The notes beneath the pieces were generated by a model. The model was not told the DNA's origin. It saw nothing but the letters and a program-made list of their open reading frames with translations, and made no database searches. A stretch of DNA of 64,000 nt from assembly GCA_045863395.1 (NCBI GenBank), contig BTVJ01000004.1, forward strand, positions 96,001 through 160,000, in the 5' to 3' direction. The position numbers and the translations under genes were made by a program. Position 1 is the first letter of the stretch. The number at the start of each line of letters is the position of its first letter. The DNA comes from Myxococcales bacterium. Its GTDB lineage: Bacteria; Myxococcota_A; UBA9042; JABWCM01; BTVJ01. Positions 13,882 to 22,907 of the stretch are shown one piece after another.

Positions 13882-15177
13882 TCAGGCGGTGCCGAACCGC
13901 CGCTCCATCACGATCCCGACGCGCTGGAGCAGCGGCAGCGGGAGCTGGCCCCCCGCGAAGATCAGCACCTGGTCCGCCGGGATGGTCTGGTCACCCTCTG
14001 GGGTCGAGAGCACCGCATCCTTGGCGCCGATGGAGCGCACCTCGGTGCGCAGGGCGAGGGTCAGGCGCCCCGCCGCGGCCTCGACGGCTGCCACGTTCTT
14101 CGGCTTGGCGCGGTCGAAGACATCGCGCCGGTAGGACAGCACGACGCGGGTCCCGGGCAGCTCCGACAGCCTGACCGCGGCCTCGATGGCGCTGTCGCCG
14201 CCCCCCACCACCAGCACGGAGAGCCCCTCGAAGGCCTCCGGCTCCCGCAGGCTGTAGGCCACGTGGGGTTGGTCCTCACCGGCAACGCCGAGCTTGCGCG
14301 GGGTGCCCCGGCGCCCGATGGCCAGGATGACCCGAGCGGCGCGAAGCTCGCCCGCGCTGGTGGTCGCGACGAAGGCGTCCCCGTCGCGGCGCAGGTCGTC
14401 CAGGCGGACACCGGCGCGCAGGTCCACCTGGGCCGCGTCCGTGGCCCTCCGCCAGATGGCCAGGAGCTCCTCCTTGTGCATCTGCCGCGCCTTGACGCGC
14501 CCGTAGAACGGCAGGTCGAAGGGGGCGAGCATCACCAGCTTGCGCCGGGGGTAGGTGCCGATGGTGCCGCCGAGGGACTCCTGGTCGATGGTGATCGCGC
14601 GGAGGCCGAGCTTGCGTGCCGCCAGGGAGGCGGCCATCCCCGCGGGGCCCGCGCCCACGATGAGCAGGTCCGCCGTCTCTCCCGAGGGGCGTGGCTGGCG
14701 CGCGATGTGCTCGACGGCCTGGAGCCCCTGCGCGACGGCGTTGCGGATGAGCCCCATGCCGCCCAGCTCGCCCACGATGTAGACGCCTGGCACGTTCGTC
14801 TCGAAGTGCTGGCTGACGTGGGGGATGTCCACGCCCCGCTCGGACGTACCGAACACGAGTGAGATGGCCCCCACGGGGCACTCGGCGGCGCACCGGCCGT
14901 GCCCGATGCACGCGTTGGGCTGCACCAGCAGCGCGCGACCCCGATGAAGCGCGAGGATCTGCCCCTCCGGGCAGGCGGCGACGCACGCCGCGCTGCCGAT
15001 GCACACGGTCGGGTCGATGTGCGGGTGGAGCGAGGTGGGGACCATCCGCTGGAGGTGCTCCGGTACCTCCTCCAGGTGGACCCGCCGCAGCGCGTGCCGG
15101 TGCCGCAGGAGCCACCACGCCACGAGCACACCGGCCACCGAAAGGATCCCCGCCGTCGCCCAGGTCTCGATCTCCAC
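13882..15177 (-). CDS. Membrane-anchored ferredoxin-domain FAD/NAD(P) oxidoreductase (TrxR/YpdA-like fold)
   Basis: N-terminal TM helix, CIGSAACVAACP and CIGHGRCAAECP Fe-S motifs, IVGAGPAG (FAD) and VVGGGDSAIE (NAD(P)). GTG start after GGAGG. Confidence 0.85.
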   Translation of the reverse strand: MEIETWATAGILSVAGVLVAWWLLRHRHALRRVHLEEVPEHLQRMVPTSLHPHIDPTVCIGSAACVAACPEGQILALHRGRALLVQPNACIGHGRCAAECPVGAISLVFGTSERGVDIPHVSQHFETNVPGVYIVGELGGMGLIRNAVAQGLQAVEHIARQPRPSGETADLLIVGAGPAGMAASLAARKLGLRAITIDQESLGGTIGTYPRRKLVMLAPFDLPFYGRVKARQMHKEELLAIWRRATDAAQVDLRAGVRLDDLRRDGDAFVATTSAGELRAARVILAIGRRGTPRKLGVAGEDQPHVAYSLREPEAFEGLSVLVVGGGDSAIEAAVRLSELPGTRVVLSYRRDVFDRAKPKNVAAVEAAAGRLTLALRTEVRSIGAKDAVLSTPEGDQTIPADQVLIFAGGQLPLPLLQRVGIVMERRFGTA

Positions 15178-15197
15178 CCTTGTCACCTCCCTGCGCG

Positions 15198-15222
15198 ATG
15201 TCCATGGCGCGCCTCTGGACAT
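15198..15222. promoter_or_regulatory. Inverted repeat ATGTCCA-N11-TGGACAT, candidate operator in the divergent promoter
   Basis: Perfect 7-bp arms between the divergent oxidoreductase gene and the cytochrome operon. Confidence 0.45.
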
Positions 15223-15362
15223 GGAGGCACAAAGGTGTAGCATCGAGCCAACGTCGCCGCCAGACCGAGGTGGTGGGCGGCGACGCCTCGAGGGACCCGA
15301 CGGGAGACCCCGCCTCGCCCCTCCGACGGCCCCGGAGGCCGCAGGAACCGAGGAGCGGTACC

Positions 15363-21729: not shown

Positions 21730-21731
21730 GC

Positions 21732-22643
21732 GTGGCTCACAAGGGCGCAGACGTCCCAACACGGCGCCTGGGCGCAGGCCGCAAGCTCTTCGTGGCGGCG
21801 CTGCTGCTGGTCGGCGCGGGCACGGCCGCGGTGCTTGCCGAGCGCGGCTGGGACTACTACGGCATGAACGCCTGGGAGCGGGCGGAGCGCCCCGACCTGG
21901 CAACGCTCGGGTCGAGCGGCGCCGCGGGCCTGGCCTACGGCATCGCCGGAACGGCGCTGATCCTCGTCAACCTCACCTACCTGCTCCGGCGCCACGTCCC
22001 GTTCATGCGGCAGGCGGGCAGCCTGCGCACCTGGATGGAGCTCCACGTGCTGACCGGCCTGCTCGGCCCCCTGCTGGTGCTCTTCCACTCGGCCTTCGAG
22101 CTGCGGACGGAGCTCGCCACCGGCGCCCTCAGCGCGCTCGGCGTCCTGGTGGTCACGGGCATCGTGGGCCGCTACATCTACGCCCAGGTCCCGCGAACCG
22201 TGTCAGGCGCCGAGGCGGGCCCCCAGGCGCTGTCCGTCCGAGCGGACCAGGCGGAGGCAGCCCTGGCGCGGGCGCTGGGCCCCGGCTCCCCCCACCTGGA
22301 CGCAATCCGTGCGCTCGCGGGCCGCGAGAACCCCGTGCCCCGGAGCCGCCTCCTGTGCCTCCTCATGCTCCCCGTGATCTCCGCCCGGACGCTGGGCGTG
22401 CGCCTCGCCATCCGGTCGCTGGGGCGGCGCATCGCGCGAGACTGCGAGAGCGGGGTCGACACGGGCGCCGTGCTCGCGGACCTGGAGGACGTGGTCCTCA
22501 TCCGCCAGCGCCTCCAGGCCCTGGAGACCTTCCGCGAGCTGATGCGCTGGTGGCGCGGCCTCCACCGGGCCTTCGCGATCCTCATGTTCGCCGCCGCTCT
22601 GGTTCACATCGCCGTGGTGACGGCGCTCGGCTACGGGCTGTAG
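21732..22643 (+). CDS. Inner-membrane protein with 4 intramembrane His (ferric-reductase/cytochrome b-like)
   Basis: TM helices with WMELHVLTG..LVLFHS and WWRGLH..AALVHI, plus GIVGRYIY. GTG start at 21732. Confidence 0.7.
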   Translation: MAHKGADVPTRRLGAGRKLFVAALLLVGAGTAAVLAERGWDYYGMNAWERAERPDLATLGSSGAAGLAYGIAGTALILVNLTYLLRRHVPFMRQAGSLRTWMELHVLTGLLGPLLVLFHSAFELRTELATGALSALGVLVVTGIVGRYIYAQVPRTVSGAEAGPQALSVRADQAEAALARALGPGSPHLDAIRALAGRENPVPRSRLLCLLMLPVISARTLGVRLAIRSLGRRIARDCESGVDTGAVLADLEDVVLIRQRLQALETFRELMRWWRGLHRAFAILMFAAALVHIAVVTALGYGL

Positions 22644-22652
22644 GGAGGCACC

Positions 22653-22907
22653 ATGCGCACGCTGTCGATGCTCTCGGTGCTCGCCGCCCTGCTGGCGGGG
22701 TGCGAAGACGACCAGCGCTTCTCCCCGCCCGGGCTCCCCGGCGCCTGCAATCCTGAACAACGAGCCTGCTACGACCACCCCCAGGACGGTCGCCCCATCC
22801 TGCTGCGCTGCAACGACGGGTCGGTCAAGGGGGCCGTGTGGGTCGTGGACCGGGTCTGCGCGGAGGGCGAGGTGTGCGAGCAGGCCGCCTGCGCCCCGGT
22901 GGGGTGA
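22653..22907 (+). CDS. Small Cys-rich lipoprotein
   Basis: GGAGG RBS, lipobox LAGC, six further Cys. Confidence 0.7.
   Translation: MRTLSMLSVLAALLAGCEDDQRFSPPGLPGACNPEQRACYDHPQDGRPILLRCNDGSVKGAVWVVDRVCAEGEVCEQAACAPVG

Follow-up and report, generated by a model that had tools for sequence, protein, structure and literature searches.

Gene content of the locus

The window, by which we mean the whole stretch of 64,000 nucleotides that was analysed, contains a seven-gene locus in which an oxidoreductase gene on the − strand (OXR) is separated by a divergent intergenic region of 176 nt (15187..15362) from an operon on the + strand encoding three multihaem cytochromes, a predicted barrel protein, an inner-membrane protein (IMP) and a small lipoprotein. 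The locus is real. Its three cytochrome genes, CytA (15363..17150, +), CytB (17147..18133, +) and CytC (18136..20106, +, with a start at 18136 or 18148), hold 23, 13 and 26 CxxCH motifs respectively, 62 in all, exactly the numbers that the preliminary description had given for two exported cytochromes and a lipoprotein cytochrome. Between 15363 and 20106 the frames of the + strand contain 23, 26 and 13 motifs and all three of the − strand none, the remaining 59 kb of the window has two over six frames, and shuffled cytochrome proteins gave a mean of 0.16–0.37 with a maximum of 4 (2000 shuffles). Junctions between successive operon genes measure −4, +2, 0, +2 and +9 nt, a spacing as in a tightly coupled operon, which is how the genes had been described. 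The intergenic region holds a single sigma70-like site (15216-15243, +), identified by consensus match only. At the distal end, an 84-aa Cys-rich lipoprotein (22653..22907, +), the small lipoprotein noted previously, has a lipobox, LAGC, recognized by eye; it is an accessory, found in no more than 4 of the 68 related loci, which belong to the closest relatives. Contigs from the RNA libraries of three studies contain the locus. The contig of run X7 also spans the flanks and intergenic DNA, and was therefore not taken as transcription of the locus, and run X19 represents a strain about 95% alike in which mainly the cluster is covered and the flank is different.

The cytochromes devote 25–26 aa to each haem (25.9 in CytA), and their tri-haem units bear the motif [FWY]xLxGxH. 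Histidines outside the motifs exceed the haems in each protein (28 against 23 in CytA, 15 against 13 in CytB and 29 against 26 in CytC), a surplus that would be sufficient for bis-His ligation. CytA shares 30–35% identity (E 1e-63 to 1e-80) with full-length 21/24-haem proteins of Burkholderiales loci of the type known as PCC3, a predicted four-gene porin–cytochrome c cluster (He et al., 2017, PMC5566968), and is by this similarity a homologue of their periplasmic cytochrome. CytB and CytC are homologous to the second cytochrome of the same loci (E about 1e-21 to 1e-33). A conserved C-terminal domain of CytB with CxxCHPxG also ends CytC, a protein built from 73-aa tri-haem repeats that correspond to a 219-nt tandem repeat (18670..19783, +; 5.1 copies, 81% identity), and whose haem number and position differ among relatives; it found no match in the PDB at E 0.001. 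By eye, CytA, CytB and the barrel protein have cleavable-type signal peptides and CytC has a lipobox, LAAC. In nine related loci CytA and CytB form a single chain from which the inner signal peptide is absent, and the repeat cytochromes beside the barrel vary in length across related loci from 7 to 73 haems. A crude rule detected a lipobox multihaem protein in only 27 of 55 barrel-bearing loci.

The gene that follows (20107..21729, +) encodes a 540-aa protein with a C-terminal Phe, for which AlphaFold2 with a 57-sequence alignment returned a barrel of 22 strands with a small N-terminal beta domain (pLDDT 92, pTM 0.74) and no plug of TonB-receptor size; an earlier single-sequence fold (pLDDT 32) was superseded by this model. 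The protein is thus predicted to be a large outer-membrane beta-barrel, in agreement with its first assignment as a probable one. Structure searches retrieved general barrels only (TonB receptors, Occ porins and ushers), with no specific relative and with the N-terminal 110 residues barely covered. The best matches were TonB-receptor barrels (Z 19, rmsd 4.6, 349 aligned), a membership that we did not adopt, as the model shows no domain of the size of a plug; MtrB appeared at Z 15.3 (rmsd 5.4, 348 aligned). Pfam and NCBIfam contain no family for the protein, the Atlas returned only unnamed clusters for one homologue, none of the 57 barrel homologues matches the Mtr models of NCBIfam, and the comparison with MtrB that had been proposed was negative, PF11854 (MtrB/PioB) having no match anywhere in the host genome. 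In contrast to the 26 strands of MtrB, 22 were also predicted for the PCC3 barrel of L. cholodnii. In 13 Burkholderiales loci the barrel profile matches the porin-position gene 11 times (E 1e-13 to 1e-45); one of the stretches ends with its contig ahead of that gene. A barrel was co-located in 56 of 68 IMP-anchored loci and missing from 12; among 31 OXR-anchored loci of at least 19 kb it was found in 22 and missing from 9. Contig ends and divergence account for some of these absences.

The oxidoreductase and the inner-membrane protein

OXR (13882..15186, −) was defined from Pfam and NCBIfam models, PDB matches and column conservation as a membrane-anchored Fe-S/FAD enzyme of 434 aa with an N-terminal helix, two ferredoxin motifs and a Pyr_redox_3 domain. 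The anchor and motifs claimed in the preliminary description therefore stand, with three amendments. The reading frame is open from 15243, the start given earlier, yet a GTG at 15186 preceded by AGGGAG is the likely start, from which the 434 residues are counted; the gene lies back-to-back with the operon; and each cluster motif has one Cys replaced, by Ser in the first (C62xxS65xxC68xxxC72) and by an invariant His in the second (C93xxH96xxC99xxxC103), so that the second cluster is probably His-ligated. The flavin domain has a circularly permuted TrxR/YpdA fold without the redox CxxC; the corresponding site reads YSLREP, and Cys is not among the commonest residues there in 52 aligned sequences. 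OXR also has GGG[DN][SA]A and two invariant arginines, R353 and R359, aligned to HRR..F.R of TrxR/FNR structures. Arginines of this kind presumably bind the 2′-phosphate, and with this NADPH-type motif the enzyme would be expected to prefer NADPH. Its best PDB matches are YpdA (7a7b) and the TrxR-type ferredoxin-NADP+ reductases 3ab1 and 6gas (E 1e-43 to 1e-30). Assignment as a thioredoxin reductase is ruled out by the missing redox CxxC in the NADPH domain, and assignment as YpdA/Bdr by a score of 133.5 bits against NCBIfam TIGR04018, below the cut-off of 339.9. OXR shares with YpdA, a bacillithiol disulfide reductase, and with the TrxR-type ferredoxin-NADP+ reductases an FAD/NADPH fold without redox CxxC, but differs from them in being circularly permuted and in having an N-terminal anchor and a ferredoxin domain with two clusters. 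Nor is it the plant-FNR-type dehydrogenase domain of NOX, its fold being permuted TrxR/YpdA, and the earlier designation as an FNR-like enzyme is superseded on the same grounds.

IMP (21732..22643, +) is a protein of 303 aa with five hydrophobic helices and one amphipathic stretch. The four histidines for which it had been singled out lie in WX3HX13H motifs at 101 and 274 (H105/H119 and H278/H292), both of which are kept in 62 of 65 aligned homologues. It also has TGxxGR and, at the position of the SGXXG motif, which PCC3 has on TM4, TGIVG, in which both Gly are invariant; the first residue is T in 37 and S in 29 among the 65 homologues, and S in 13 of 13 Burkholderiales IMPs examined. PF01794 gave a weak match (25 bits, cut-off 28), the IMP profile found no meaningful match in the PDB, and a first locus scan using IMP alone found nothing. 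From its motifs IMP is predicted to be a di-haem b protein of ferric-reductase-domain type. Its predicted topology is N-in/C-out, and that of the OXR anchor C-in.

OXR and IMP are inherited together. In a survey of 301 host-phylum genomes in which a full OXR was defined by at least 430 bits, 67 had one and 66 of these also had IMP, bearing in mind that kin are not independent; in the sole exception OXR sits at a contig edge. Conversely, 24 of 90 IMP-bearing genomes were without a full canonical OXR and 16 without even a distant or partial form. Among 401 genomes of the order Burkholderiales, the identical set of 26 has a full-length OXR and a strong IMP match, and of 27 IMP copies 25 stand next to OXR in divergent orientation, the other two lying within about 16 kb of it. 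An OXR-anchored scan of many phyla, restricted to the best 80 of 567 matches, found IMP in 69 of 80 loci and a cytochrome of at least 7 haems in 65, and where the locus extended over at least 19 kb both were present in 31 of 31. The co-conservation of oxidoreductase and membrane protein with the cytochromes, on which the preliminary description had made its reading depend, is thus borne out. Fusions of OXR and IMP occur in 16 of the 68 IMP-anchored loci and in both orders (12 IMP-OXR and 4 OXR-IMP), with one further OXR-IMP fusion among the best 80 of 567 OXR-anchored loci. Both orders fit the predicted topology, and IMP-OXR would give a NOX-like chain of six helices. OXR was absent from the fetched stretch in 15 of the 68 IMP-anchored loci, eight of which have a 2×[4Fe-4S] domain fused to IMP, which would again provide a cytoplasmic Fe-S entry. 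Tree distances of OXR and IMP are correlated (r 0.83; 115 loci and the window), although common ancestry alone can produce such a correlation. The complex prediction proposed earlier for this pair gave a score of 0.39 against 0.01 for the best control, with runs agreeing in at least 55% of contacts and a partner pLDDT of at least 71. Of 157 solved complexes 116 attained the mark applied to such scores, as did 2 of 215 mismatches; scores reaching it yet no higher than 0.60 belonged to only 18 of these solved complexes and to both mismatches. The model lends weak support to contact. Fusion and co-inheritance would be compatible with a quinone site on IMP too.

Relationship to PCC3 and other electron-transfer systems

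The novelty implied for the conduit in the preliminary description does not hold, since the PCC3 cluster that He et al. (2017, PMC5566968) predicted has matching repeat cytochromes, barrel and IMP. PCC3 likewise has an IMP of about 300 aa and five helices with two WX3HX13H motifs (in TM3 and TM5), a periplasmic cytochrome of 21–27 haems (23 here), further repeat-rich multihaem cytochromes of about 25 aa per haem and a large beta-barrel. All four PCC3-type components of the locus have homologues in Burkholderiales loci with PCC3 gene order, and gene order and haem counts of PCC3 in Sideroxydans lithotrophicus ES-1 agree with those loci. Unlike PCC3, the locus has three cytochromes, one of them a lipoprotein, an IMP gene placed behind that of the barrel and not at the front, T in place of S in SGXXG, a barrel that is shorter, at 540 aa, a Myxococcota-like host and a linked NADPH-type Fe-S flavoprotein. 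This last appears to be the new element, a fifth gene absent from the four-gene descriptions of PCC3 in the papers covered; a literature search of mostly open papers found no link between PCC3 and an NAD(P)H flavoprotein. He et al. (2017, PMC5566968) define PCC3 as non-homologous to the Geobacter Pcc porins OmbB/ExtB and name as carriers Sideroxydans ES-1 (Slit_0867-0870 and Slit_1446-1449), Leptothrix and tubeworm symbionts; a later preprint describes it as functionally unverified (bioRxiv 2025.02.27.639646).

The pairing of OXR with IMP is reminiscent of E. coli MsrQ/Fre, NOX, STEAP and FRE, in each of which a haem-b protein of ferric-reductase-domain type is combined with a cytoplasmic NAD(P)H flavoenzyme, here a proposed donor, and a partner outside the cytoplasm. 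In contrast to these systems, the donor here is a membrane-anchored, permuted TrxR fold with two Fe-S clusters and not of Fre/FNR type. With NOX and FRE the IMP shares two HX13H bis-His motifs, but there are two genes here instead of one chain of six TM helices and an FNR-type dehydrogenase, and the flavin domain resembles TrxR and is accompanied by Fe-S motifs. The NOX/ferric-reductase-like arrangement put forward earlier is therefore retained for the HX13H protein and not for the enzyme; the OXR-IMP module may work like NOX without being one. MsrQ, a ferric-reductase-domain haem protein once believed to be quinone-fed, is reported to be reduced from NADH by cytosolic Fre (PMC12525009); as a further difference from this group of systems, IMP keeps all four His, and the acceptor would be a multihaem chain with an outer-membrane barrel. 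The proposed topology of periplasmic cytochrome, porin and lipoprotein cytochrome is that of Shewanella MtrCAB with CymA and of Geobacter OmbB-OmaB-OmcB or ExtABCD with ImcH/CbcL. Here, however, the barrel has no MtrB/PioB family match and fewer strands, c7-like tri-haem repeats take the place of the MtrA/MtrC decahaems (the DmsE/MtrA-family model reached no more than 31 bits, the cut-off being 192), and the locus has no quinol-oxidising c-type cytochrome. PCC4 and the porin-less clusters of multihaem cytochrome, IMP and redox protein in Table S6 of He et al. (2017, PMC5566968) also place an HX13H IMP beside a redox protein (412–425 or 608–805 aa) or an Fe-S gene but have small cytochromes (4–18 haems) and a different IMP family.

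Proposed electron path and competing explanations

Our current working hypothesis, which we favour by a modest degree, is that OXR and IMP form a split NOX/MsrQ-like module that sends NADPH electrons outward through a PCC3-type wire. Electrons would pass from NADPH to the FAD of OXR, on to its two Fe-S clusters, one of them probably His-ligated, and then to the two b haems of IMP; CytA would carry them across the periplasm to CytB, predicted to enter the barrel, and thence to the CytC lipoprotein, predicted on the outer face, from which they would leave for an acceptor outside the cell, for example Fe(III)/Mn(IV) oxides, humics or flavins, or for a partner cell. We infer from the comparisons above that the cofactors are bound, that NADPH is preferred, that the proteins are in contact, that the barrel is threaded by a cytochrome and that the outer end lies exposed at the surface, and likewise the direction of flow and the nature of the acceptor. 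By textbook reasoning, electrons moving from the negative to the positive side spend membrane potential, so that the device would be one of reductant export or a redox valve, resembling NOX, STEAP, yeast FRE and MsrQ/Fre, and not an energy-conserving respiratory chain. An NADPH donor and an inside-negative potential would favour outward flow, a step beyond the preliminary description, in which direction could not be read from sequence, although direction is still a deduction here. As a wider proposal, held with slightly less than even confidence, PCC3 may be a five-component, NADPH-driven, quinone-independent conduit across both membranes that exports low-potential reductant to minerals, humics and other cells. 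That this five-component reading extends to at least ten phyla, about a fifth of host-phylum genomes and one plasmid we likewise put forward only tentatively, as a nearly balanced judgement.

The published PCC3 model instead treats IMP as a quinone-active cytochrome b and the wire as tied to the quinone pool, running inward in iron oxidisers; OXR would then be a side branch coupling NADPH to the pool via IMP. The model rests on the cytochrome-b-like HX13H motifs, from which an iron-oxidation route was proposed (He et al., 2017, PMC5566968), and the IMP-bearing genomes without a canonical OXR (24 of 90) are in its favour, as is a rise of one PCC3 IMP in Sideroxydans CL21 when cells could oxidise iron (bioRxiv 2025.02.27.639646). 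MsrQ is reported to bind ubiquinone, but the same source gives potentials that exclude quinone as its donor (PMC12525009), and both ES-1 PCC3 clusters are reported to be down-regulated on Fe(II) (PMC8788666). Together with the near one-to-one inheritance of OXR and IMP, their fusion in both orders and the Fe-S domain that stands in for OXR in eight loci, this makes the quinone-linked model rather unlikely in our view. It is also fairly improbable that the wire is periplasmic, NADPH charging a multihaem capacitor or feeding periplasmic reductases while the barrel lets in a soluble substrate or serves to anchor or export the lipoprotein. The 22-strand, TonB-receptor size of the barrel, the cleavable-type signals of CytA and CytB, the long loci in which no barrel was found and the porin-less clusters of He et al. 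(2017, PMC5566968) point that way; co-location of the barrel in most IMP-anchored loci and its lack of a TonB-type plug speak against it, and cytochromes of such variable length next to the barrel would suit outward extension.

Two further explanations concern the ends of the path. Donors of very low potential outside the cell (Fe0, reduced humics, a cathode or a syntrophic partner) might reduce NADP+ directly, by flow in the reverse direction. TrxR-type ferredoxin-NADP+ reductases, which are among the best PDB matches of OXR, are reversible, and PCC3 is found in lithotrophs; however, electrons flowing inward would have to climb both the NADP+/NADPH potential and the inside-negative membrane potential, and Emticicia, Hyphomonas and Undibacterium are examples of heterotrophs that carry the cluster, so that we regard this direction as decidedly unlikely. 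These three genera have an aerobic lifestyle. O2 might also be the acceptor, in a long-range NOX that either gives extracellular superoxide, used for instance in signalling or to oxidise Mn(II), or scavenges oxygen at a distance from the cytoplasm. The NOX-like six-helix fusions, the presence of three haem-copper oxidase family genes in the host genome and the occurrence of PCC3 in Mn-oxidising Leptothrix and Erythrobacter (PMC5566968) agree with this, but O2 diffuses to a membrane haem and would make a 62-haem wire and a barrel unnecessary, and we consider the explanation very improbable.

The Gram-negative porin–cytochrome conduits that have been characterised (Mtr, Geobacter Pcc) draw their electrons from the quinone pool, and genome surveys list PCC3 among candidate iron oxidases. 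If the NADPH flavoprotein is the entry point, outward flow would consume membrane potential, and the presence of PCC3 would indicate that reductant is exported (for metal or humic reduction, redox balancing or cell-to-cell transfer) and not that iron is oxidised, so that many annotations would change. Extracellular electron transfer would then have a third type of electron supply, and the role that PCC3 has been assigned in iron oxidisers would be turned round. A direct wire from NADPH to the surface would also be useful for bioelectrochemistry.

The claim is open to study in cultured strains, namely S. lithotrophicus ES-1 (Slit_0525, Slit_1446) and Emticicia oligotrophica DSM 17448. Slit_0525, a protein of 431 aa with the OXR motifs in permuted order, is an apparent orthologue of OXR by these motifs. 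It is unlinked to PCC3, lying by accession order between queC and sucC, and the gene adjoining Slit_1446 encodes an HD hydrolase. In the ES-1 proteome the summed iBAQ is reported as 3.1e8 for Slit_0525 and 3.3e8 for the PCC3 IMP Slit_1446 (PMC12016527). Patterns made from short ES-1 IMP peptides gave no informative match to Burkholderiales IMPs; one peptide of Slit_1447, from a publication supplement, has a FDHxTTGFxL stretch in common with CytA. In E. oligotrophica DSM 17448 the cassette is carried on plasmid pEMTOL02 (EMTOL_RS21085-21110).

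The operon and its place among porin-cytochrome clusters

The six + strand genes of the operon overlap or abut, with gaps of no more than 9 nt, in keeping with the tight coupling proposed in the preliminary description. Three encode exported cytochromes (CytA, 15363-17150; CytB, 17147-18133; CytC, 18136-20106), and they are followed by genes for a barrel protein (20107..21729), a five-helix membrane protein (IMP, 21732..22643) and an 84-aa lipoprotein (22653..22907). Our motif count agrees with the 23, 13 and 26 CxxCH motifs first attributed to the cytochromes, as against none in the opposite frames and two in the remaining 59 kb of the window; shuffled proteins gave no more than four. 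The cytochromes consist of c7-like tri-haem units with an [FWY]xLxGxH linker, at about 25 aa per haem, and by count in the sequence their spare His residues suffice for bis-His ligation. CytC, earlier called a lipoprotein, does carry a LAAC box, as well as five 73-aa repeats (219-nt tandem unit, 81% identity). CytA and CytB are fused in nine related loci, which supports one continuous chain leading from IMP towards the barrel. A contig from an RNA-library run (X7) lacks 438 nt of window 18865-19304, corresponding to two tri-haem repeats of CytC, which could mean either that the strain has six fewer haems or that the repeats collapsed in assembly.

The probable beta-barrel at 20107 was modelled with confidence using a 57-sequence alignment (pLDDT 92, pTM 0.74), giving 22 strands from mature-chain residue 115, with a small beta domain, then a linker and a single helix ahead of them. 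Structure searches place it nearest to TonB-dependent receptors, whose barrels also have 22 strands (Z 19.4, rmsd 4.6, 349 aligned), but a domain the size of their plug is absent from our model. No family in Pfam or NCBIfam, MtrB included, matched the protein. IMP has five predicted helices, with WX3HX13H on helices three and five and TGxxGR on helix four, and its four His residues are invariant across 65 homologues. Identical motifs, but with S for T, define the IMPs of the predicted clusters PCC3 and PCC4 in the portions consulted of He et al. (2017; PMC5566968).

We compared the window with 13 Burkholderiales-type loci: L113 and 12 stretches drawn from the 26 Burkholderiales-order genomes in which both IMP and the oxidoreductase (OXR) discussed below occur. 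These loci contain IMP, a 21/24-haem cytochrome (in one case split in two ORFs) and a second cytochrome of 10-62 haems, and 11 of the 13 also have the barrel; all of these proteins have homologues in the window. The Sideroxydans lithotrophicus ES-1 clusters have the same gene order and haem counts, according to passages of PMC8788666 and PMC9900912, and CytA shares an FDHxTTGFxL stretch with one Slit_1447 peptide. The Burkholderiales homologues, gene order and haem counts thus make a strong but indirect case that the window locus belongs to PCC3. The window version differs in gene order, in its third, lipid-anchored cytochrome and in its host, which is Myxococcota-like in that OXR sequences of its phylum group in the tree with loci titled Myxococcales or Polyangiales. 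PCC3-type clusters are common in the window's phylum, where 92 of 301 genomes have an IMP match; many extracellular electron transfer cytochrome clusters in Myxococcota are left without assignment in a survey known to us from excerpts (bioRxiv 2022.03.26.485925). The conduit itself is of an already known, functionally unproven kind.

The oxidoreductase and its association with IMP

OXR (13882..15186, - strand; probable start 15186) is divergent from the operon and has an N-terminal membrane anchor followed by two ferredoxin motifs and then a TrxR-type flavin domain, its nearest structures in a PDB search being YpdA and TrxR-type ferredoxin-NADP+ reductases. It is circularly permuted: residues 118-166 precede the first GxGxxG and match the stretch following the NAD(P) domain in three same-genome flavoproteins (E 8e-7, 0.002 and 0.007, with six sequences searched), and PDB chains gave a like match, with weak second domains. 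The first cluster motif is C62xxS65xxC68xxxC72, with position 65 Ser in 42 and Cys in 9 of 52 sequences, and the second is C93xxH96xxC99xxxC103, with His in 52/52. If the ligands pair as they usually do in ferredoxins, one cluster would be held by three Cys and the other would have a His ligand; in hydrogenases, His-ligated clusters serve as electron exit points. A redox CxxC is absent, while GGG[DN][SA]A is present and Arg353 and Arg359 are invariant, which we take to be an NADPH-type pattern.

The co-conservation of OXR and IMP with the cytochromes, raised earlier as a point to check, held. Of the 111 other places with an IMP, 68 were examined, picked mostly on score and size of contig; OXR was found in 53 of them, the barrel in 56, a cytochrome of at least seven haems in 65 and all four in 47. 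OXR and IMP form a single chain in 16 of these 68 (IMP-OXR in 12, OXR-IMP in 4), representing at least two fusion events, and both orders are compatible with the predicted topologies. In 8 of the 15 loci without OXR, IMP is instead fused to a 2x[4Fe-4S] domain. Among the best 80 of 567 OXR matches listed from a GTDB scan (3 of the 80 duplicating loci collected earlier), which span Alpha- and Gammaproteobacteria, Bacteroidota, Acidobacteriota, Calditrichota, Zixibacteria, Omnitrophota, Planctomycetota, Nitrospirota and Myxococcota, IMP occurred in 69 and the barrel in 36, rising to 31/31 and 22/31 for loci of at least 19 kb. By genome, in the window's phylum, 66 of 67 OXR genomes have IMP, and full OXR (at least 430 bits; 17 genomes whose matches were all distant or partial and below this were scored as without it) is absent from 24 of 90 IMP genomes. 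In the Burkholderiales sample both occur in the same 26 of 401 genomes, the exceptions being one with partial OXR only and two with weak IMP only. When OXR and IMP were modelled together with haem and FAD, the predicted complex scored 0.39 and the best control 0.01, a result that the tool grades as weak support; the mark for such scores is reached by 116/157 solved complexes and 2/215 mismatches, and scores of 0.60 or less among these belong to only 18 solved complexes and both mismatches. Contacts agreed between runs by at least 55%, with partner pLDDT of at least 71.

The ES-1 IMP gene Slit_1446 neighbours an HD hydrolase gene, and the apparent OXR orthologue, Slit_0525 (D5CMS9; 15 peptides detected, PMC12016527 supplement), is unlinked, which is likely why the association was missed in print. 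Slit_0871, adjoining the other ES-1 PCC3 cluster, is absent from the proteome table. The association is partly foreshadowed by redox proteins (412-425 and 608-805 aa) listed without names beside related IMPs in porin-less clusters, in the same portions of He et al. (2017; PMC5566968). The literature searched yielded no mention of Slit_0525 or of an NADPH entry module as a regular fifth part of PCC3, to which the excerpts consulted of PMC7399161, PMC6295460, PMC13386937, PMC12133095 and PMC13013709 add nothing. The present analysis adds the two-order fusions, genome-level counts, barrel model, complex score and ES-1 candidate gene.

Several loci show further variation. The Fe-S-fused IMP variant (L077:10574-12805, L079, L080, L084, L085, L089, L094, L096) has extra Fe-S motifs and a faint cNMP-binding match in its N-terminal region besides the 2x[4Fe-4S] domain; 18-31-haem cytochromes lie in 7/8 of these loci, and a distant OXR-like protein (340-378 bits) is encoded elsewhere in several of the genomes. 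Plasmid pEMTOL02 of the cultured Bacteroidota strain Emticicia oligotrophica (L180, NC_018749.1), the sole OXR match among 72,556 plasmid records, carries a whole cassette at 10905-22703, with a ccsA fusion, IMP, OXR, 23- and 40-haem cytochromes and the barrel. A Sel1 and ankyrin-repeat gene of about 660 aa lies downstream of OXR at L114:11317-13305, L111:11180-13216 and L152:11285-13258, with like-sized ORFs after OXR in many other loci, and in L101 ccmF/ccmH genes sit between OXR and IMP.

Proposed electron path and its direction

The most likely path is from NADPH through FAD, Fe-S, b haems, CytA, CytB and CytC to the acceptor. NADPH electrons would enter the FAD of OXR and then its Fe-S clusters, pass to the b haems of IMP, and continue through CytA to CytB, predicted to lie inside the barrel, and thence to CytC, predicted to lie outside the cell, and the acceptor. 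He et al. (2017; PMC5566968, in part) noted the likeness of IMP to the ferric reductase domain and proposed that it is a quinone-active cytochrome b. The closest worked precedent for a flavoenzyme-fed IMP is MsrQ, a ferric-reductase-domain protein first thought quinone-fed and now argued, in passages of PMC12525009, to be reduced by cytosolic Fre.

Exit of electrons from the negative cytoplasm is downhill in both redox and electrical gradients, whereas an outside donor would have to push electrons up both gradients to reduce NADP+, so that outward flow is favoured and would spend proton-motive force instead of conserving it. Such flow agrees with the finding that ES-1 down-regulates PCC3 on Fe(II) (excerpts of PMC8788666) and with the presence of the cluster in heterotrophs, for example the Emticicia cassette with its own ccsA gene. 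The rise of one PCC3 IMP in iron-oxidising cells of Sideroxydans CL21 (bioRxiv 2025.02.27.639646, in part) fits outward flow less well.

Host genome and neighbourhood

Data sets from sludge, wastewater and bioreactors contain the host, one possible source run having been set aside. Its genome carries three genes of the haem-copper oxidase family and six for cytochrome c assembly. It holds 34 ORFs with at least three CxxCH (271 motifs in total), including an 11+24-haem pair (G000:C13:25221-29257), an Rnf-like cluster with 16- and 5-haem genes (C28:72537-79442), a collagen-stalked decahaem (C94:3-2300) and a 10-haem gene (C16:68665-72153). The convergent neighbour of OXR (window ~12732-13862, + strand) encodes a lipoprotein with a single CxxxxCH near its C-terminus and no Pfam family, a weak homologue of which lies ahead of a 13-haem gene on contig C65. 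Window 38001-42000 has a G+C content of 0.62-0.64 against about 0.72, and a 987-aa ORF without a Pfam match lies at 39185-42148. Large, probably exported proteins surround the cluster (4252-6807, 8868-11324, 23239-25122 and 31436-38092) and bear eukaryote-like domains (fibrinogen/COLFI, C-type lectin/link, F5/8 and Ig-like repeats); those at 8868 and 23239 have, by eye, a similar N-terminal stretch.
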